A DNA stretch of 64,000 nt, taken from contig CAWGRW010000009.1 of the NCBI GenBank assembly GCA_963825135.1, positions 416,001-480,000 on the forward strand, given 5' to 3'. Positions 13,641 through 35,817 of this stretch are shown here, in pieces. The notes under the pieces were generated by a model. It was not told the origin of the DNA. It ran no database searches and saw nothing but the letters and a program-made list of their open reading frames with translations. The stretch is from an uncultured bacterium (GTDB taxonomy: Bacteria; Desulfobacterota_D; UBA1144; Nemesobacterales; UBA2774). Positions within the stretch are counted from its first letter, which is position 1, and the number at the start of each line of letters is the position of its first letter. A program made the translations under genes and the position numbers.

Positions 13641-15155
13641 TCAGAACCTGATCTGGAAGTCGAACATGTAATCGGCTTCGGCGATTCCCTTGGTCGGCCC
13701 GTAGACGGGGACCTGGATCGCGACACCGGGGCTCCATTTGTTCCCGAACCTTATGGCCGGAGCGATGAAGAGGTCCGTGCCGCCGCCGGGGCCGTCGTCG
13801 GTCGTGATCGTGTATCCGTCGAACTCGCAGGAGAGAGTGGGCGAACCCGTCATGGGGACGTTAAGCCCCGCGGCCGCGTGGTAGTTGATCCTGAACTCGA
13901 AGTCCTGCCCTTCGAAGTGCTTGGCGTTGAATATGAAGTCCGTGCCCACTGCGCCCTGGATGCTGAAGGGCCCCTTCCACGCCCCCGCCGACAGGTACGG
14001 CGAAACCGTCGCCGCCCGGTAGAGGTACATCGGGAAGTCCCTCCTGTACTTAACAATCTGCTGGAGCCTCTGCTGGTCGTCCGTGAACGTGGTCGGCATG
14101 TACGCCTCGAGCCCCGCCGCTATGGCGAAGTTCTTCGATTTGGCCGCGAGCGCTTTCACTCCGATCAGGAGGTTGCCGAACTCGAACCCGTCCCTTATCT
14201 GCGTATCCCCGTCCTTCACGTTGTCGACGCCGCCGTAGGGCACGTCCGTGTATATGCCCCAGAAATTGCTCTCCGAAGGGAACTCGAGCCTAGTGGGATA
14301 GAGTATGAACTTCCCGCCCACGTCCTTCTTGAGCCTTATCAGCTCCAGGCTGGGCGCCACCCTGCCGAGCGGCAGAGGGGGCTCGAAAAAGCGCGGGTAC
14401 GCGAGATCGAGCGCCCTGCCCTTCGTCGTGGATATGGTGAACTGGCCCTGGTACTGGAACGAGCCCGTTACCGGGTTTATGAGTCCGAAGGACGTGTCCC
14501 GGACGAATAGCCTCGTGGGGTTGGTGATATATGCGGCGACGTGCGCGGCCTTCGAGTCCTGCTCGATGAGCCAGTTGGAGAGCTGCTCCATGCTCCATCC
14601 GAGCGGGATGCCGAGAGCGGGGGTCACTATGAGATCGACGCCCGAGGGCCTGACGGCCCAACCCTCGATGCCGTATTCGAACAGCGTGCTCTGTATGATC
14701 GAGCCCAGGGCGGACGCCCAGACGCTGTGCCCCCTCGCCCTGTAGAACTGGTATGAGAGCATGCCGAAGAACGGGTGGAGCACCCAGTTGACGACGAAAT
14801 CGTCCTGGTCGTTCCAGAGCGGGTCGCTCGTGAGGTTGTGCCAGAAGGTGTGGAACGAGCCGTCGAATATCTTGATGTTCTTGTCCCTCACCCACCAGAG
14901 CCTCCCCGCCCACTGCACGCCGTACCAGATCGCCGTGTCGCCCATATAGGTCTTGAAGCCGGGGGGCCGGAGGTTAGGATTCGGAGTGGGCTTCGGTTTC
15001 GCGTCCCCGACAGGCGTTACGGCGTCGCCCGGATCGTGCGGCTTGCCCGCGTCTTCCGCGGAAAAATTGTCGGGCGGGGTTTGGGCGTATGAGACAACAG
15101 GGGCAGCGAGCTGTATTAATGCCAGCAGAATAAGACCGGCTGTTTTCGCCATCAT
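13641..15155 (-). CDS. DUF3943-domain outer-membrane protein (paralog 1)
   Basis: Signal peptide; PLWNDQDDFVVNWVLHPFFG...YRARG...STLFEYGIE...PSGVDL (DUF3943 pattern); beta-strand-rich C-half ending FDFQIRF. Confidence 0.75.
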   Translation of the reverse strand: MMAKTAGLILLALIQLAAPVVSYAQTPPDNFSAEDAGKPHDPGDAVTPVGDAKPKPTPNPNLRPPGFKTYMGDTAIWYGVQWAGRLWWVRDKNIKIFDGSFHTFWHNLTSDPLWNDQDDFVVNWVLHPFFGMLSYQFYRARGHSVWASALGSIIQSTLFEYGIEGWAVRPSGVDLIVTPALGIPLGWSMEQLSNWLIEQDSKAAHVAAYITNPTRLFVRDTSFGLINPVTGSFQYQGQFTISTTKGRALDLAYPRFFEPPLPLGRVAPSLELIRLKKDVGGKFILYPTRLEFPSESNFWGIYTDVPYGGVDNVKDGDTQIRDGFEFGNLLIGVKALAAKSKNFAIAAGLEAYMPTTFTDDQQRLQQIVKYRRDFPMYLYRAATVSPYLSAGAWKGPFSIQGAVGTDFIFNAKHFEGQDFEFRINYHAAAGLNVPMTGSPTLSCEFDGYTITTDDGPGGGTDLFIAPAIRFGNKWSPGVAIQVPVYGPTKGIAEADYMFDFQIRF

Positions 15156-15409
15156 CCCGACCCTCCCGGACGGTAATTTGCCGAAACCCGGACGGCTCAT
15201 AACGCTCGGGACGAATGTCCCGCCGTCCGGCTCCTGACACATTCTAACAATAATTGACCGGAAATAAAAGAAGAATTATCAGCCGGCGCGATATTCGCCC
15301 CTGCCCGGAGAAATTTCCGGAAAATCAAAATCGTCTCTTGCGCAATGCATATACATCATATAGTTTATATATTAACGGGCGTCCTGCACTCGCGGGCCGC
15401 CGAAAGTGT

Positions 15410-15917: not shown

Positions 15918-17432
15918 CTAGAACCTCACCTGGAAATCGAACATGTAGCTCCACCTGTCTACGGCCTTGTCCACGCCGTAAACGGGGAACTGCACGGCGA
16001 AGCCGGGGCTGTATTTCCTTCCGAACCTCGCGCCCGACGTGACGAACATATCGGTCTTCTTGAACGTATCCGCGGTGAGGAACGAGTACCCGTTGAACTC
16101 GGCGAAGAGCACGGGGGACGCGATCACGGGGAGGTTTGCCCCGACAGCGGCCGCGTAATTCACGTTGAACTCGGCGCTATGGCCCTCGAGCTCGTCCGCG
16201 TTCAGCACCAGAGGGGCCGACACCATCGCCTGCACGTTGAACACCCTGCCCCAGGCGGCGGCAGTGACGTAGGGCGCCGCGGTCCAGGCCTTCTGCAGAT
16301 TGATCGGGTAGTTCCTTCTGAACATGGTCACGGTGGTAAGCCTGTCGATGTTGTCCTTGTACGAGGTCGGGAGTATGACGTCGAGGCCTCCCGATACAGC
16401 CGAGTTGTGCGTCTTGAACATGAGGCGCTTGCCCCCGATAAGCACGTTCGCGAATTCGAACCCGTCCCTCACGTCATCGCCGTTGACGACGACCGCGTTC
16501 ACCCCCGACTGCGCAATCTTCACGTAAACGCCCCAGAGCTGGTTCGACGAAGGGATGTCCGCGCGGAGCGAATAGAATACGAACTGCCCGCCCAGGTCCC
16601 TCTTCAAGTTCACGATCTCGAGGTCGGCCCTGAACCTTCCGAGAGGGAGCGGCTGCTCGATGAAGAACGGGTACGCCAGGTCTATGGCGTCCTGCTTGTT
16701 CGGAGTGAACACTATGGGGCCGCTCACGGACATGAACGTCTTGGTGAACGGGTTGTAGAGCCCGACCTGCCTGTCGGAAATGAAATTCCTCATCGGGTTC
16801 AGTATATGGGCGAGTATCTTCGCCGGAACGAAGTTCGTGGAGGCGAGCAAATTCGAGGACTGCTCGAGCGCGATGCCGAGCGCCGTGCCCACAAGGGGGG
16901 TCGAAATGAGGTCCTGGATCGACGGAGTTTCCACCGTACCCTCGATCGTGTATTCGAACAGCGTGCTCTGGACAACGACTCCGAGAGCGGACACCAGCAT
17001 GCTGTGCCCCATCTGCCTGTAGAAGAGATATTCCACCGAGCCTATAGCCGGATGCGTAACCCAGTTCGTGAAGAAGGAGTCCCCGTCGTCCCACACCGGG
17101 GCCTGCGAGATGTTGTGCCACCACTTGGATAAGGAGGTGTCGAATATCCTGCTGTTCTTGTTCCTTACATAGAAGAACCTGGCCGCCCAGAGGCCCGAGT
17201 ACATTATGGCGGAGTCGCGGAGAAAGGCCTTTACCCCGAGGCGCTCATTCGCCTCCTCGCCCGTGACGAATTCCCCGTCCTTCGCGGGCTCTTCCTTTTG
17301 CGCCGCGGCGGAGCTCCCGGGGACTGAGGAATCGTAGAGGTCCTTTATCTGCACGTCCTCCTGTGCCGCTGCCCGGAGCGCGAAGAGGACGATAAAAAAC
17401 ATAAAAAAATACCTGTAAAGCTCCCTCACCAT
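15918..17432 (-). CDS. DUF3943-domain outer-membrane protein (paralog 2)
   Basis: PVWDDGDSFFTNWVTHPAIG...STLFEYTIE...PSIQDL; colinear with paralog 1 (DLAYP.F.E.PLPLGR, RDGFEF.N); ends FDFQVRF. Confidence 0.75.
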   Translation of the reverse strand: MVRELYRYFFMFFIVLFALRAAAQEDVQIKDLYDSSVPGSSAAAQKEEPAKDGEFVTGEEANERLGVKAFLRDSAIMYSGLWAARFFYVRNKNSRIFDTSLSKWWHNISQAPVWDDGDSFFTNWVTHPAIGSVEYLFYRQMGHSMLVSALGVVVQSTLFEYTIEGTVETPSIQDLISTPLVGTALGIALEQSSNLLASTNFVPAKILAHILNPMRNFISDRQVGLYNPFTKTFMSVSGPIVFTPNKQDAIDLAYPFFIEQPLPLGRFRADLEIVNLKRDLGGQFVFYSLRADIPSSNQLWGVYVKIAQSGVNAVVVNGDDVRDGFEFANVLIGGKRLMFKTHNSAVSGGLDVILPTSYKDNIDRLTTVTMFRRNYPINLQKAWTAAPYVTAAAWGRVFNVQAMVSAPLVLNADELEGHSAEFNVNYAAAVGANLPVIASPVLFAEFNGYSFLTADTFKKTDMFVTSGARFGRKYSPGFAVQFPVYGVDKAVDRWSYMFDFQVRF

Positions 17433-20754: not shown

Positions 20755-23700
20755 TTACGGGGCTGCCGACGAGGCCCTCTGGCCGCTGAATTCGCAGAGG
20801 AGCTCGAGGTTCGCTTTCACGATCTCGTGCTGAGCCGGGTGCGTATTTTTCGTAAACACCTTGAGCGCCTCCTGGTACGCCTCGGACGCCTTATCGCAGT
20901 TCCTGACCCTGTCCTCTTCCTCGGCCAGGGCCGTGTAAGCCCCGCCGATGTTGTTCTGCGTCGTAGCGTACTCCAGCGGGAACCTGCCTATGGTATAGAT
21001 TATGAGCGCGGTCTCGTAGGCGTTTATCGCCCTCCTGCAGTTCTTCGCCCTGTCCTCGACCTCCGATAGCATCCTGTGGACGACGCCCAGGTTATTCTGC
21101 GTCGCCGCGAACTGCATCGGGTAATTCTGAATGGTCCTGACCTTGAGCGCCTCCTCGAAAGCGCTCCGCGCCAGCCTGCAGTTGGCCTCCTTGTCCTCGA
21201 CGTCGGCGAGCGTCATGTACGCGGTGCCGAGGTTGTTCTTCGTCGATCCGTACTGTACGGGGCGCTCTTTTTCGTTATATACCCTGAGCGCCTCCCTGTA
21301 TGAATTCACGGCCCTCTTGCAGTTCTTCCCCTTCTCCTCCCGCTCGGCGAGGGTCCTGTACACGATGCCGAGGTTGTTCTGGGTGGCGGCGTATTCGAGC
21401 GGGTATTCCTTTAAATTATAGACCCCGAGCAGGCGCTCGCAGCACCCGACCGCCTTCCTGCAGTTCCCGGCCGCGTCCTCCCGCTCGGCGAGCCGCCGGT
21501 ATATGGCGCAGAGGGCGCTCAATACGGAGGCGTACTCGGCGGGCATGCGCTCGCGCGTATAGTACCGGAGCGCTTCTTCGTACGACTCGGCGGCGGATTT
21601 CAGGTCTTCCGCGGAGTCCGAGAATCCCGAGAGGCTTTCCCAGGCCGAGGCGGCATTCCTCATGATGAGCCCGTAGTCCTTGGGGGAGGTCTCGAACGTA
21701 ACGACAGAGAGTGCTTTCCTGTAGGCCTCTAAGGCCCTCCCGAAGCATTCGGGGACCCCGTCCCTCTGCGCAATATTGCCCCACGCGATGCCCATGTACT
21801 TATGTATTTCGGCATGATCGGAAGGAGTTATCCCCGCGCCGTACGCGGCGAGCGCTTTCTCAAACGCCTCGACCGCCCGCGTATAATCCTCCGAGCGGTC
21901 ATCCACCTCCGCGAGAACGCCGTATATGAAGCCCATATTCTTTTGAATCCTGCCGTACTCGGCCGGGTGCTCCCCCGCCGCGAAGACCTCAAGCGCCTCC
22001 GTATATTCCGAAAGCGCCTTCCTGTACTCGGCCGCGTCCCCCTTTATATGGGCGAGCGTCCGGCGTATGTCGCCGAGACTTTCCTTTACCGCCGCCCGCT
22101 CTACCGGGGCGGACTCCCCCGCCATTACCCCGAGCGCCTCGCTGTAAGATGCGGCCGCGCGCTCGTAGCCCTTGACGTCCCCCGTCTGCTCCGCGAGCTT
22201 CTCCCACGCTGAGGCGGCCCCTCTCTGCGCTTGAACGAATTCGACGGGGAAATTTTCACTCGTGTAATAGGCGAGCGCTTCCTCGTACGCCCTGAGCGCG
22301 TTCCTCAGAATATTGGCGGCCCCCCTCGCTGACCCGATCTCCCCGTACGCCCTGCCCAGGCGGAGTTTAAGAGAGGCGTACCCGGCCGGGGATTCCTCCC
22401 TCGAAGCGCGCTTCAGGACTTCCTCGTAATGCGCGGCAGCCTCTTCCGGATCGTCGAATTCGACTTCGTCCGCAAGCGTTATTATCTCATCTTCATCCCC
22501 TGACGCGGGACCGGCAGCTTCAGCCCCTTCGTGCTCGTCCTCTTTCACGATCTTGAGGACGGGCCTTTCTTTTTCAGCCTCGCTCTCTACGCCGCCTCCG
22601 GCGCCGTTTCCCCCGGACAGAAATGCACGCGCCTCTTCGAGCCTCTTCGCGGTCTCCTCGCGCTCGGGGGCGAATTCCCCGGCCGTGTTCACGGCCAGTG
22701 CCTCTTCGAAGTCGCGGACGGCGAGCTCCATCTGCCCCCGCTCTCCCGTAATCAGGCAGAGCGCCGCCCGGAGCTTCCCGGTCTCGAGCCTGACCCCCGC
22801 GCACTCGCGCGGATACCCCGCAGGGCTCAGGACGGCGAGCGCCCGCCCGTAGGAGTCAAGCGCCTTGAGCGAGTTCTGAACCGGGTCTTCGGCCCCGCCC
22901 AGGCGGGCGTACGCCGACCCCAGGGACGCGTGTAAAAGGGCGTGCTCGTAAGGGAAATGCGCCTCCGAATAATAGCCGAGCGCTTCCTGATAGTATCCGA
23001 TTTTATTGCTGACGTTTCCCGTCCATTCCTCCGCGAGCTCTTTGAGGAGCCCGCCCAGGAGCCCGCATATCTCTCTCCTCTTTTCGGGCTGCTCCTCCTC
23101 CGTATAGAAGCCGAGCGCTTCCCTGTAGGAATCGACGGCCAGCTCCGCGCTCGCGGCCCTGCCCGATTTCTCCGGCAGACCCCTGTAGAAATCGCCCAGT
23201 CTTACGTGGGCCTCCGCGTACTCCCGCGGGCGGCCGAGCGCGTCATAGAGGCCGAGCGGCCCTCTAAGGGCCTCGGCCGCCCCCTCGTAGTCGCCCGACC
23301 CCTCGAGGGAACGGGCGAGCGACGCGTATAGCCCCGCGAGAGTGAGGGCCCTTTCCTCGCAGCCCCCTTCCCCGCCGGCTGCGGCCGCGTAAATGGAGGC
23401 CGAATACGCGGCTATGGCTCTTTTCAGATCGAGCGCGTCCCCGCCTTCGCGGTAGAGCCTTTCGAAGACCTCCCCGAGCTTCCTCCCGTTGGCCGAGTGC
23501 TCCTTACGCGCGATCTCCTCCGGGTAATAAAGGAGCGCCTCGTCGTAGTATTCTATAGCCCTGTCCGGGTTATTAGATTCGGCTTCGATGTCGCCAAGCG
23601 CCTTGTACACGTTCCCGATCCTGATATTGAGCCCGGCGGTCTCCGCGTCCCCGCCCCGGCCCGTATGCGAGGAGAGAGCTTCCTTATAGGCGGCGAGCGC

Positions 23701-24927
23701 CCGTTCGTATTCGCGCGGGTCCACGCTCTTTTGCGCGAGCGAGACGCACGCGTCGCCGAGGTTGCTGTTGGCGAGCGCGCGGTCTGACGGGGAATATGCG
23801 AACCCCCCCGATGAAAGGCATTGCCTGAGAGACTCCGCGGCATCCCTCGCGTATCCCGTCTCACCGGTCATGAGGCAGAGCGCGTTTAACGCTACGCCCA
23901 GGTTGTTGCCGACCGCCGCGAACTCGTGCGGGTACCTGTCCCTGGTGAAATGGCCGAGGGCGGTCCTGTAAAGATCAGCCGCCCTCAGGAGGCCTTCAGT
24001 GTCATCCCGCGAATCGGAATTTCGGACGAGGAGGTCGGCGAGCTTCTTCGAGGTGACGGCAGCGAGCGCCCCGGGCTTTTCACGTTCCAGTATCGATTCA
24101 TATATGGAGGCGCATCTGCCGGCGTACTCTCCGCTTAAGACGGCGCCGTCCCCGGCGGCGATTAGTCCGGCGTAGAGAGATGCGAGACAGCTGAGGATGC
24201 GGGAAGGGACCGTCCTGCCCGAAACCGCCTCCCATTCCCTGAGCCTCCCGTACAATTTATCGAGATCGGGGAATCCGAAACCCGTCCTCGATGCGAAGTG
24301 CCGGGAGATCCTGAGCGCCGTTTCTCTGAGATCCCCGTCCCCCGCGGATCCGGCGGGCCGGAGGCAGTCCTCCATGTACCTGTCGATTATTCCGGGGAGC
24401 GCTTCGTCGATTTTATTCCTTATCTGCTCCGAGGGGCTTTCACCGCTCCGGGCAACCGCTCCGGAATCCGTTTCCGGGCTCCCGGTCACGCCGGATTGTG
24501 CGAATTTATCCAAATGCGCCTGCGCGCGGCCGCGCCCGGGCTCCCCCGCCCCGTGACCGCTTTCATGTTTCGCCCCCTCAGGGTCTCCGAACGTGATTAC
24601 GAATTTCCCCCGCCCCCTGAGATATCCGAACTGGTACAGCTCGTCGGGCCCGAGCCTGTCGAGTATGAGGACGCCGAGCACGCAGTCCCCCGCGAGCTCT
24701 TCGAAGCGCTCCATGTAATGTCCGTTTAATATATTGAGATCGGAGAGGAGACTGACGCGTATGCCCTTTTGCGGGAGGTAATCCCTGAGGGCGTCCAGGA
24801 TTCGACGGGCGCTTTCCCCGTCCCCTTTTTCCGCATGCAGCACTACGCAGTTGAACTCGCTGTCGTTACCGATGAGCAAGCTCAATTCCCTCGCGCCGCG
24901 TGAGCCGGAAACAGTTCCGCTAGACAT
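20755..24927 (-). CDS. Large TPR-repeat protein with N-terminal TIR/NDT-like domain
   Basis: Many ~46-aa repeats such as YPLEYAATQNNLGIVYRTL and FPLEYATTQNNIGGAY; N-terminal GDCVLGVLILDRLGPDELYQFGYLRGRGKFVITF. Confidence 0.85.
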   Translation of the reverse strand: MSSGTVSGSRGARELSLLIGNDSEFNCVVLHAEKGDGESARRILDALRDYLPQKGIRVSLLSDLNILNGHYMERFEELAGDCVLGVLILDRLGPDELYQFGYLRGRGKFVITFGDPEGAKHESGHGAGEPGRGRAQAHLDKFAQSGVTGSPETDSGAVARSGESPSEQIRNKIDEALPGIIDRYMEDCLRPAGSAGDGDLRETALRISRHFASRTGFGFPDLDKLYGRLREWEAVSGRTVPSRILSCLASLYAGLIAAGDGAVLSGEYAGRCASIYESILEREKPGALAAVTSKKLADLLVRNSDSRDDTEGLLRAADLYRTALGHFTRDRYPHEFAAVGNNLGVALNALCLMTGETGYARDAAESLRQCLSSGGFAYSPSDRALANSNLGDACVSLAQKSVDPREYERALAAYKEALSSHTGRGGDAETAGLNIRIGNVYKALGDIEAESNNPDRAIEYYDEALLYYPEEIARKEHSANGRKLGEVFERLYREGGDALDLKRAIAAYSASIYAAAAGGEGGCEERALTLAGLYASLARSLEGSGDYEGAAEALRGPLGLYDALGRPREYAEAHVRLGDFYRGLPEKSGRAASAELAVDSYREALGFYTEEEQPEKRREICGLLGGLLKELAEEWTGNVSNKIGYYQEALGYYSEAHFPYEHALLHASLGSAYARLGGAEDPVQNSLKALDSYGRALAVLSPAGYPRECAGVRLETGKLRAALCLITGERGQMELAVRDFEEALAVNTAGEFAPEREETAKRLEEARAFLSGGNGAGGGVESEAEKERPVLKIVKEDEHEGAEAAGPASGDEDEIITLADEVEFDDPEEAAAHYEEVLKRASREESPAGYASLKLRLGRAYGEIGSARGAANILRNALRAYEEALAYYTSENFPVEFVQAQRGAASAWEKLAEQTGDVKGYERAAASYSEALGVMAGESAPVERAAVKESLGDIRRTLAHIKGDAAEYRKALSEYTEALEVFAAGEHPAEYGRIQKNMGFIYGVLAEVDDRSEDYTRAVEAFEKALAAYGAGITPSDHAEIHKYMGIAWGNIAQRDGVPECFGRALEAYRKALSVVTFETSPKDYGLIMRNAASAWESLSGFSDSAEDLKSAAESYEEALRYYTRERMPAEYASVLSALCAIYRRLAEREDAAGNCRKAVGCCERLLGVYNLKEYPLEYAATQNNLGIVYRTLAEREEKGKNCKRAVNSYREALRVYNEKERPVQYGSTKNNLGTAYMTLADVEDKEANCRLARSAFEEALKVRTIQNYPMQFAATQNNLGVVHRMLSEVEDRAKNCRRAINAYETALIIYTIGRFPLEYATTQNNIGGAYTALAEEEDRVRNCDKASEAYQEALKVFTKNTHPAQHEIVKANLELLCEFSGQRASSAAP

Positions 24928-25121
24928 ATCCCTTTTTCCTCTAAAGTAAAGAAGCCGCGGAAAAGGCCAGGTCCCGCAATATCCGGAGGGACCCGAAGCC
25001 GTTTTCGGTTACCGTCGGCAAACAATCCGCGGGGGGGGATGCGAAGGACGCGGCGCCGTTAAAGACGCTTCGGGCCGAGAAATGCGCGTACGAAGACGGA
25101 GAGAACCTAAAGGAATGTCCC

Positions 25122-25215
25122 GACTTCGGCGGCCCAGCCGCCATCATGCCCCCGAGAGAGCATTAAGGCCTGTGGCTTTGCGTCCCACCCTTTCGAATGG
25201 TTTGCCTTTTCGGTC
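25122..25215 (-). ncRNA. c-di-GMP-I (GEMM-I) riboswitch
   Basis: Minus strand GACCGAAAAGGCAAACCATTCGAAAGGGTGGGACGCAAAGCCACAGGCCTTAATG...CATGATGGCGGCTGGGCCGCCGAAGTC; matches the GEMM-I consensus including the GAAA tetraloop and GGGACGCAAAG core. Confidence 0.93.
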
Positions 25216-33957: not shown

Positions 33958-35817
33958 TCAGAACGCCTGTCCGATGCTGATAAAGAACTGTACCCTCCTT
34001 ATACCCGGCTCCGGATTGAGCGCGTACCCCACATCGAACCTCACGGGCCCGATTATTGTATCGTACCTGAGCCCCACACCGGGGGCGTACTTGATGTCTC
34101 CGAGCGGAAAGCTCCATTCGCTGGCGTAGACGTTTCCGTAATCGAAGAAGACCACTCCCCCGAACTCTCCGTAGATCGGATACCTCACCTCGAAACTGCC
34201 CACGAGGAGAGAATTGCCTCCGAGCGGGTCGCCCCCGTCGCTCAGCGGACCCAGCTTCTGGAAGGGGAAACCCCTCATGCTCGTGCTGCCGCCCGCGAAG
34301 AACCTCTTGAAGATAGGGATATCGAACGTGCCCGTGGAACCGAAAGGCTGTATGACGCCCATTGTGATCCTTTTTGCCAGGACCATCCTGTATAATTTTT
34401 TATATCCCCTCAATTCGACCGTGCCTTTAAAATAATTCACGTCGGAAAGGAGCGCTCTGAAGGACGATTCGAGACCCGTGGAGACGACGAACCCCCGCGT
34501 GGGGTTGAGTATGTTGTCCGTGTTATCGTATTCGAGTCCGGAGTTAAAGAAGGTTAGGAAGAAATTTTCCCTGCTCTTCTCTTCAGGGGTCCGCCTTGCG
34601 CTCTTCTGGACTCTCGAGAACTGTACATTCGTTGAGCCGAACGAGGAATAGTGCTGCGCGAAATCCTTTTGAAGCTCGGCGGTCGCCAGGAAGCTCTCGC
34701 CCTCGAAGCTCGGGACGTCGTCCCTCTGGAAATTGAGCGAGCCCGTGAGACTCGAGTCCCTGCCTACTATATACGGCTGTATGACGCTCGTCTCAAGACG
34801 CTGAGTAATAAAAGAGGCTTTTCCCGCGACTTCGAGCCTCCGTCCGCCGCCGAAGAAATTCCTCTTTGTCCAGATCACCTGCCCCCTCAGCTTGTCCTCG
34901 GTGCCGAAACCGACTCCGAACTTCACCGAGCCCTGTTTCCTCTCTTTAACGACTATTCTCATGTCGGCGATTTTCTTCTCCTCGTTATAAACGGGATCTA
35001 TCACGACCGACCTGAACAGCCCCAGCTGAAAAATATTGGCCTGGGTTTCGTTAATCTTTGTCAGCGAGAACTCTTCGCCCGGCTTGAAAAGCGCTTCCCG
35101 CGAAATAATATAACTCTCGACTTTCTCGTTGCCTTCCACAATGACGGTCCCGAACTTGTAAATCGGGCCCGGTTTGACTACGAAGGTGGCCTTCGCCCAC
35201 TTTTCCTTCCTGTTGACGAGCGCTTCGCCCTGTATATCTGCCTTCGGGTAACCCTTGTCCGAGAGAATCTCCGAGATTGCGCCCTTTGTCTGCTGGTAGC
35301 CGTTCGGCGAGAAATTTTTATCCACTTTAAGCGGCACCGCTTTCTCTATCTTCTTTTTGATTTCATCGCTCAGGTCCCCTTCATACTCAACGCTAAGCTC
35401 CGTAAGGATTACCGGGTCCCCTTCCTTGATCGTTATCGTTATCTCAACCCTCGTATCGTCTTTATTGTATTTAAGCTCGTATGAGGCCTGGGCGTCGTAA
35501 TAGCCTTCGTTCGAATAGAGCCTCTTTATCCTGACCATGTCGTCCTTGAGGACTTCCTCGTTAAACTCAGGTTTCTTCACCCAGAATTTGATAGAAGGAG
35601 CGCCCGTCCCTATGTTCTGCTCTATCTCCTGCTTCGTGAGGACTTTCGCCCCCTTGATTCTCAATTTGGAAATGCGGATCGCCGGCTCCGCGGCTTCTTC
35701 CTTTTCCGCGCTTCCGGCATCCTTCTCTTTTTCCTGTGAAAACGAAATAACGGGGGCGTGCATGAATGAAAAACAGAAAAGCAGGAATGAAAAAGATATA
35801 AATATATATTTTTTCAT
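33958..35817 (-). CDS. Omp85-family outer-membrane assembly factor (TamA-like, 3 POTRA domains)
   Basis: Three POTRA repeats, RFFAGGSTSMRGF lid-lock, GPVRFD, C-terminal ISIGQAF. Confidence 0.88.
   Translation of the reverse strand: MKKYIFISFSFLLFCFSFMHAPVISFSQEKEKDAGSAEKEEAAEPAIRISKLRIKGAKVLTKQEIEQNIGTGAPSIKFWVKKPEFNEEVLKDDMVRIKRLYSNEGYYDAQASYELKYNKDDTRVEITITIKEGDPVILTELSVEYEGDLSDEIKKKIEKAVPLKVDKNFSPNGYQQTKGAISEILSDKGYPKADIQGEALVNRKEKWAKATFVVKPGPIYKFGTVIVEGNEKVESYIISREALFKPGEEFSLTKINETQANIFQLGLFRSVVIDPVYNEEKKIADMRIVVKERKQGSVKFGVGFGTEDKLRGQVIWTKRNFFGGGRRLEVAGKASFITQRLETSVIQPYIVGRDSSLTGSLNFQRDDVPSFEGESFLATAELQKDFAQHYSSFGSTNVQFSRVQKSARRTPEEKSRENFFLTFFNSGLEYDNTDNILNPTRGFVVSTGLESSFRALLSDVNYFKGTVELRGYKKLYRMVLAKRITMGVIQPFGSTGTFDIPIFKRFFAGGSTSMRGFPFQKLGPLSDGGDPLGGNSLLVGSFEVRYPIYGEFGGVVFFDYGNVYASEWSFPLGDIKYAPGVGLRYDTIIGPVRFDVGYALNPEPGIRRVQFFISIGQAF

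Follow-up and report, generated by a model that had tools for sequence, protein, structure and literature searches.

A giant soluble repeat protein in an uncultured bacterium of the order Nemesobacterales is encoded behind a riboswitch of the cyclic di-GMP (c-di-GMP) type. We propose that c-di-GMP represses translation of this protein, a scaffold in which a catalytically dead TIR-like head is joined to TPR-type repeats, and that a groove at its C terminus binds a conserved partner. From sequence comparison and structural modelling, we put the probability of this reading at roughly 0.55. The window analysed here comprises 64,000 nucleotides (nt) of contig CAWGRW010000009.1 (assembly GCA_963825135.1, positions 416,001 to 480,000). 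Within it, the gene of 1390 amino acids (aa) occupies 24927-20755 on the minus strand, and the aptamer lies at 25215-25124 of the same strand.

A canonical aptamer in the leader of a giant gene

The aptamer itself is ordinary. The first-pass annotation, made from the sequence alone, described a near-consensus GEMM-I aptamer with G at the position of Vc2 G20, lying about 195 nt before the 1390-aa gene and co-directional with it, and each part of that description holds. The covariance model RF01051 (c-di-GMP-I) scores 68.8 bits at 25215-25124 (cut-off 35, E 2.5e-13), and 196 nt separate the end of the aptamer from the ATG. It is the sole Rfam match in the window, in clan CL00126, where the c-di-GMP-I-GGC variant RF03167 reaches 67.2 bits (cut-off 59). 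We reject the variant label. We take the 'GGC' of its name to mean ligand-pocket positions, and A47 to be a ligand-pocket position of the c-di-GMP-I aptamer. In that column the RF03167 consensus is G, whereas the window and all 19 aligned leaders have A. The RNA is therefore a canonical c-di-GMP-I aptamer, its variant name stemming from Rfam clan competition. The family search was positive in 0/14 control genomes, and the window's own genome carries ten copies, including this one.

The ligand positions G20, A47 and C92 fall at 25206, 25179 and 25129, and all three are invariant in 19/19 leaders. According to one study, G20 and C92 of Vc2 read the two guanines of the ligand, A20 is the mark of cyclic GMP-AMP (cGAMP) switches, and wild-type Vc2 requires cGAMP at 10 µM for binding (PMC6140456). 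On this literature, c-di-GMP is the predicted ligand. A cGAMP riboswitch (GEMM-Ib) would need A at position 20 and is rejected.

Pairing in the 19 leaders agrees with the expected structure, a two-stem fold that includes a GNRA (GAAA) tetraloop stem. In the aptamer stems, 94.1% of cells are paired (slid controls, 22-45%) and 10/26 pairs show two-sided changes, in a test that uses the structure of the Rfam model and is hence biased in favour of that fold. An outer closing helix of eight pairs (85.5% of cells paired, two-sided changes in 4/8 pairs) extends the element to 25220-25118. The aptamer shares with Vibrio cholerae Vc2 and RF01051 the covariance score, the tetraloop stem, the three ligand positions and the placement in a 5′ leader. 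It differs from known c-di-GMP-I switches in its target, a giant soluble repeat protein.

The aptamer stands in cis, as first supposed, behind its own sigma-70-type promoter. This site (TTGACA-17-TAAATT, 25272-25244, minus strand) matches 10/12 consensus positions, with one such site found against 0.5 expected in shuffles; it is a consensus match and not a mapped start, with transcription predicted from about 25237. TTGACA recurs upstream of the aptamer in 19/19 leaders, mostly with a 17-nt spacer and TAnnnT. A consensus scan of the platform between aptamer and ATG in the window leader found neither a minus-strand terminator nor a second sigma-70 site, and an intrinsic terminator in this leader is rejected on that result. 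Directly after the stop codon lies a terminator-like hairpin (20753-20736; two found against 0.9 expected), and the transcript of the gene is likely monocistronic.

Predicted control of translation

If the switch works, it is fairly probable, on folding models, that it turns translation off. Without ligand, a strand at 25043-25016 (minus) would pair with the aptamer core and leave the ribosome site half open. With ligand, the aptamer would fold and free this predicted anti-aptamer strand, the 5′ part of which (25040-25036) would double as an anti-ribosome-site strand and pair with the bases before the AUG. Since the freed strand would close the ribosome site, the protein would be made at low c-di-GMP.

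The duplex of 25043-25016 with the aptamer core is predicted at -33.1 kcal/mol, compared with -24.1 +/- 3.0 in 200 shuffles (p 0.02). Equivalent duplexes reach p <= 0.05 in 7/18 leaders, and genera g1 and g6 have the strand in the same position. In the ribosome-binding region (GAGG...GGGAT, 24941-24928, minus), enforcing the aptamer fold lifts the pairing of GAGG from a probability of 0.51-0.72 to one of 0.98-0.99 and brings 25040-25036 into pairing with the five bases that precede the AUG. Eighteen leaders were folded, leaving out that of genome G023, where the gene lies in several frames. Aptamer folding raises the cost of opening the ribosome-binding site by >0.5 kcal/mol in 13 of them (mean 2.3, against 0.5 for platform shuffles), and the OFF shift is at least the mean of the leader's own shuffles in 15.

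A TIR-like head with a decayed motif

The protein is a soluble chain of four parts: the head, a first block of repeats, an acidic linker and a second block of repeats. Thirteen Pfam families match at E <= 0.1, only TPR-type models lie above cut-off, and none of the matches is to a CHAT, NB-ARC or TIR model. NCBIfam gives two sub-cut-off TPR-type matches. The highest 19-residue hydropathy is 1.48, indicating that there is no membrane helix. The early call of a 1390-aa cytoplasmic TPR protein is thus borne out. Its suggested association with CHAT or NB-ARC effectors is not, as neither occurs in the protein or in the flanking genes; CHAT was not found in the 94% complete genome, and NB-ARC was not searched genome-wide.

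The head spans residues 23-184 (24861-24376, minus; predicted local distance difference test, pLDDT, 83) and is modelled as a TIR/NDT/SLOG-type fold. Its structural matches are tied between the TIR domain of SfSTING (VIA Z 9.8, root-mean-square deviation 2.7, 119 aligned), MilB and nucleoside 2-deoxyribosyltransferases (NDTs; 9.7), and the SLOG domain of ThsA (9.6), which agrees with the TIR/NDT-like head proposed in the first-pass annotation. A Foldseek search with the head model gave nothing at E <= 0.001 and only weak NDT and TIR rows, and ESM Atlas returned TIR clusters at 0.87-0.90, which we treat as a lead only. Searched against sequences in the PDB, profile A1 found none below E 0.38, and profile A2 found TPR matches only.

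A profile search recovered 144 related clusters, of which 61 were aligned in A2 and 45 were scanned with Pfam; most of those scanned combine head and TPR. The window head is homologous to the intact family at 99.7% probability. These relatives carry the motif D-G-F/L-R-P-N-V-x-x-E-x-G. In the window protein the equivalent stretch (residues 90-101) has decayed and has Gln99 in the Glu column, a column assigned by alignment with relatives and not by a substrate-bound structure. The R-x-N...E signature is whole in 97/106 rows outside the switch clade, compared with 0/18 switch copies. Arg and Asn are lost, together or singly, in all 18, and the motif is also broken in three further switch loci. 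The tree from which the clade is drawn uses 155/173 rows that were long enough, includes some duplicates and is midpoint-rooted. Within the order the motif can be followed from an intact form (G049, which has no switch) by way of a half-decayed one (G047) to dead copies. Every order member with an assembled 5′ end has the head at its N terminus.

At E <= 0.1, 47 of 79 aligned family members match the CAP12-type TIR model PF10137 and 40 match the NDT model PF05014; one member passes the PF10137 cut-off. The family thus resembles CAP12/Pycsar-type TIR and NDT proteins alike, as the tied folds do. The window protein differs in matching neither model, nor any TIR or defence-system profile, where its relatives match weakly; PADLOC likewise gives no match for it. 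Identity as an active NDT or MilB enzyme is rejected, as the fold is tied with theirs but the Glu is Gln. Identity as an active TIR NADase is improbable: the fold is present but the catalytic Glu and the motif are lost. In related NADases, replacing the catalytic Glu by Gln abolishes activity (10.64898/2026.09.04.749371). A head that has lost the R-x-N...E motif would have no NADase activity.

A conserved C terminus with a predicted groove

A home-made profile counts 21 repeats of ~47 aa in the window protein, and whole orthologues in the order range from 782 to 3771 aa with 12-54 repeats. Much of this range lies in the N-block (residues 290-770, 24060-22618, minus), which has ~10 TPR-type repeats here and none to >30 among orthologues, and which may act as a spacer. 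An acidic flexible linker with two short conserved hydrophobic motifs follows (residues 771-832, 22617-22432). Beyond it, the C-block runs for 558 residues to the C terminus in 8/8 members of the genus.

Conservation is concentrated at the end of the chain, where the last four to five repeats far exceed the remainder. The last 220 residues (21417-20758, minus) are 83-90% identical within the genus, 65-67% within the family and 49-55% within the order. The head ranks near the bottom in conservation, with corresponding values of 43-51%, 24-32% and 22-28%. This terminal region carries an Asn ladder and invariant Arg1191, Arg1264 and Arg1285, and it is predicted to form a peptide-binding groove. 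Its model (pLDDT 95) finds its best Foldseek matches in the TPR domains of LGN/Pins and in kinesin light chain, with template modelling scores of 0.74-0.78 to LGN and E of ~1e-5. The superhelical groove and the Asn ladder are a likeness of fold and not of membership: LGN and kinesin light chain are eukaryotic, identity is ~20%, and the repeat here is 47 aa long. By analogy with LGN and kinesin light chain, the groove of Asn and Arg residues may hold a peptide, in extended form, that belongs to a conserved partner in the cell. The earlier suggestion of a sensor/scaffold system therefore survives in its second half: scaffold fits better, and sensor is doubtful in view of the low conservation of the head and the decay of its pocket motif. 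Our guess is that the scaffold serves the pilus and surface programme controlled by the genome's other c-di-GMP switches.

Switch and gene across the phylum

The head domain is present in 29/120 genomes of the phylum. In 23 of them, spread over four families, the orthologue has the switch in front of it (f1 19/19, f2 2/2, f3 1/1, f8 1/1). Orthologues of the TPR protein do, then, keep the riboswitch in most carriers, the first-pass annotation having asked whether they would. Four of eight newly added loci had it. Six negative or control loci, including G028, G030 and the two paralogues described below, were rechecked at E <= 0.05. Two genomes are excluded from the counts: G034, in which the 5′ end is not assembled, and G005, in which the small exported gene stands at a contig start and no repeat gene was found. 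In the sequence, promoter, aptamer, 196-nt platform, gene and terminator form one unit, which relatives keep or lose jointly. G013 (95% complete) has the zinc-ribbon gene, the small exported gene and hisS arranged as usual but lacks both the switch and the repeat gene; these two therefore travel together, and the small gene is outside the unit.

The switch-bearing gene is fixed next to hisS and appears native, with a guanine-cytosine (GC) content of 0.63 and a third-position value (GC3) of 0.78, compared with 0.61 and 0.83 for hisS. In G023 the orthologue (L084) is spread over several reading frames, and since hisS of that genome is broken too, assembly errors are the likelier cause. A close relative of 1513 aa carries the NCBI label Thermodesulfobacteriota. 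A scan for related loci in named genomes with the N-terminal 342 aa gave two weak, unrelated matches.

Where a family lacks the riboswitch, this gene may be connected to c-di-GMP by other means, through a divergent receiver-HD-GYP gene (G028, G049) or a sigma-54-like promoter (G047, G049). In the switch-less G028 and G049, a receiver-domain gene lies divergent from the repeat gene (L086:3053-4186 and L144:1856-2947), that of G028 having HD and GYP motifs. Sigma-54-like sites occur at a distance of 17-62 nt from the ATG, on its upstream side (L143, L144, L088, L149 and L077). In G047 and G049 such a site stands by itself, whereas in G038, G054 and, as a weak match, G011 it follows the aptamer. 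The shortest orthologue, in G030 (L087:2921-4972), has 782 aa with head and C-block only, and a gene convergent to it is caspase-like by an NCBIfam match below cut-off.

Intact relatives and a possible origin in defence

Relatives with an intact motif are differently organised. A pattern search, weaker than Rfam (10/12 controls found), detected no aptamer at 80 intact-motif metagenome loci, 66 of them with >350 nt upstream. In several of these relatives, head and TPR are encoded by separate genes, either adjoining or overlapping, and in 7/9 cases the TPR partner is 45-53% identical to the C terminus of the window protein; L157 is possibly a single gene interrupted by a stop. Some relatives adjoin SLATT, GmrSD + HEPN, integrase or SIR2-TPR genes. 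Among the split operons (L170 and L179; also L157, L169, L174, L178 and L180), two follow a DUF4231-SLATT gene and one follows GmrSD + HEPN, and we regard these head + TPR operons as a candidate defence system. Of 140 neighbouring open reading frames (ORFs), 36 were scanned with Pfam and 66 with PADLOC; the latter matched 5/66 at 1e-10, not counting three generic TPR or kinase matches. One intact relative comes from a Hodarchaeota archaeon. Short intact-motif genes (174-204 aa), most of them directly before a gene of 114-162 aa, occur at L211, L213, L215, L218, L220-L223, L229, L232, L234 and L235; the six partner genes scanned have no Pfam match at 1e-8.

A paralogue of 1571 aa in the window's own genome (L091:4159-8874, near 1.78 Mb of contig C9) has no riboswitch, a GC content of 0.33 against 0.53 for the genome, and a position beside a tRNA gene. 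Another, in G007 (L090:4365-9086), has a tyrosine integrase upstream.

Two described systems, TIR-II, an Escherichia coli TIR + TPR system (PMC11350192), and BcTir/Tpr (bioRxiv 10.1101/2023.05.26.542521), share with this family an N-terminal fold of NAD-glycosidase type joined to TPR, whether fused or split. The repeat number of BcTpr, a protein of 415 aa, is reported to tune the head. The window family differs from both in its decayed motif, its length of 782-3771 aa, its core locus and its riboswitch; the likeness is one of description and not of sequence comparison. These observations fit a mobile TIR-TPR defence family of which one copy was fixed and disarmed, as far as sequence can tell. 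A fuller history, to which we give rather less than even odds, would have an anti-phage TIR-TPR protein domesticated in one order: it would have lost catalysis stepwise, settled beside hisS, extended its spacer to as many as 40-odd repeats and become a c-di-GMP-repressed cytoplasmic adaptor of a lifestyle switch. The direction of change in this account rests on motif counts and on a weakly supported, midpoint-rooted tree.

Counter-evidence and competing explanations

Several observations weigh against the repressed-scaffold proposal, and the first group concerns the switch. In the window leader the OFF effect of +3.1 kcal/mol is matched by 6/40 shuffles and is non-significant when that leader is taken alone. 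The effect on the ribosome site is absent in 5/18 leaders, only 6/17 relatives' leaders exceed all 14 of their own shuffles, and the 18 leaders are kin, making their statistics non-independent. Both f2 genomes (G038, G054) have the sigma-54-like site downstream of the aptamer, and 6/29 genomes have switch-less orthologues (f5 0/1, f7 0/5).

A real switch might act otherwise, by turning the gene on, by Rho-dependent or intrinsic termination, or as a stable small RNA with the gene read from another promoter. We consider this unlikely, though it is the strongest of the alternatives. Besides the weak folding signal, a hairpin with a U run in some leaders of genus g4 speaks for it, as do the sigma-54-like sites of G038, G054 and, more weakly, G011. 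Against it stand the window platform, free of minus-strand terminators and second sigma-70 sites in the scan, the absence of a sigma-54-like site in 9/9 leaders of the genus, the OFF shift in 15/18 leaders and the anti-aptamer strand shared in place by g1 and g6. A promoter downstream of the aptamer, named at the outset as a case that would undo the assignment, was not found in the window leader; a candidate for one does exist in both f2 genomes.

The second group concerns the head and the repeats. Glu is retained in 9/18 switch-bearing orthologues, motif decay also occurs in some switch-less orthologues, and the node uniting the switch rows has a support of 0.77 on 94 columns. Helical repeats match LGN and kinesin light chain easily, and an Asn ladder is common among TPR arrays. 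Repeats of split relatives, too, are 45-53% identical to the last 220 aa, and the similarity is therefore in part the repeat consensus.

The protein may still be an immune component, one whose TPR part is the sensor and whose TIR head either keeps weak activity or seeds an active TIR in trans, with its abundance set by c-di-GMP. We think this rather improbable. The retained Glu would favour it, as would the fused or split TIR + TPR of the intact relatives, which recalls TIR-II (PMC11350192), their neighbours, the paralogue on a low-GC stretch by a tRNA gene, and two TIR_2 matches above cut-off in the own genome. Its difficulties are the loss of Arg or Asn in every switch row, the Gln of the window protein and the need for active sites in all 12 E. 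coli TIR systems (PMC11350192). The gene is moreover single-copy at a core locus across an order, its putative sensor end is the most conserved part and not the most variable, it has no PADLOC match, and few neighbours of its intact relatives have one.

Least probable is a dead head serving as nucleotide receptor, with an NAD-derived signal or cyclic dinucleotide controlling the repeat array allosterically: the tied folds include ThsA SLOG, a 3′cADPR receptor, and substrate-binding NDTs, Cys27, Tyr98, Gly101 and Gly105 are near invariant in 21 heads and the head is kept across the order, but the pocket-facing positions 90-99 differ freely from one genus to another, identity of the head is 22-32% beyond the genus and its invariant residues look structural.

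c-di-GMP signalling and other riboswitches in the genome

Turnover of c-di-GMP is encoded in the genome. It has five GGDEF domains and two HD_5 proteins, and the HD-GYP gene from which c-di-GMP turnover was first read encodes a receiver-HD-GYP protein with HD and GYP motifs (62920-61736, minus), a predicted c-di-GMP phosphodiesterase. No EAL domain was found in the 94% complete genome. Hypr cGAMP synthases have Ser or Thr at the position of GacA 348 (PMC6456294), compared with Asp in 5/5 GGDEF domains found here, and no Hypr GGDEF was thus found in the 94% complete genome. Loci L099 and L100 (C9:2760138 and 2761401) have tandem GGDEF domains, with GGDEI in place of GGDEF.

GGDEF matches at E <= 1e-30 occur in 28/29 carriers of the head domain, compared with 53/120 genomes, the 29th carrier having weaker matches. 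Of the 37 genomes in family f8, just one bears GGDEF, and it is also the only carrier. Genomes without GGDEF are small (those listed measure 1.2-2.1 Mb), and co-loss may be general genome reduction, which tempers the link to c-di-GMP.

The other nine c-di-GMP-I copies (L001-L010, all with G20) precede, by names read from sequence, a PilZ-like/aminotransferase fusion, a pilM-N-O-P-Q-like cluster, polysaccharide export, a lytic transglycosylase-like gene, secreted proteins, a 919-aa unknown protein and others. At L004 (C9:2332743-2332828, minus) the aptamer lies before a subtilisin-like protease, a second protease gene, presumably cyanobactin-protease-like by resemblance, and two near-identical 98-99-aa ORFs rich in Cys and Trp; this looks like a riboswitch-led peptide cluster. 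The lineage is uncultured, flagellin-free and pilus-bearing. PilM occurs in 38/41 genomes and so has no discriminating value. Polarity hubs of the Myxococcus and Bdellovibrio type offer a comparison, which we reject, as no member of the roadblock/MglB family was found in the own genome.

Other features of the window

Upstream of the switch unit lies a 146-aa coiled-coil/zinc-ribbon gene (25857-25417, minus), syntenic in families f1, f2, f7 and f8. A terminator-like hairpin (25376-25359) separates it from the promoter of the unit. Downstream, a 180-aa protein with a signal-peptide-like N terminus has its own promoter-like site at 20728-20700 (feature 20728-20147, minus). It lies outside the module, and co-regulation with the switch unit is rejected on that site and on its retention in G013 without the switch.

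Further along the minus strand, two tandem related proteins of 500 aa (13641-15242 and 15918-17432) have signal-peptide-like starts and no NCBIfam match; their C-terminal Phe suggests outer-membrane barrels. A BamA-family protein of 619 aa (33958-35817, minus) scores above the TIGR03303 cut-off.

Significance for c-di-GMP outputs and TIR proteins

A full-text search, judged from titles and abstract openings and with subscription journals and supplements outside its reach, returned no paper that pairs a c-di-GMP switch with a TPR/TIR gene, and none on a riboswitch-controlled defence gene; gene tables of surveys may list TPR targets. Within these limits, the system is as undescribed as the first-pass annotation supposed. 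Riboswitches name the outputs of c-di-GMP signalling, and this one indicates an output without a described family: a giant soluble repeat protein. Were the head still immune, this would be a riboswitch-controlled defence gene. If the repressed-scaffold proposal is true, the passage from immune enzyme to housekeeping scaffold would be traceable, with intact, half-decayed and dead heads within one order. Domestication of this kind would be a bacterial parallel to the TIR adaptors of animals and to scaffolds of the LGN type.

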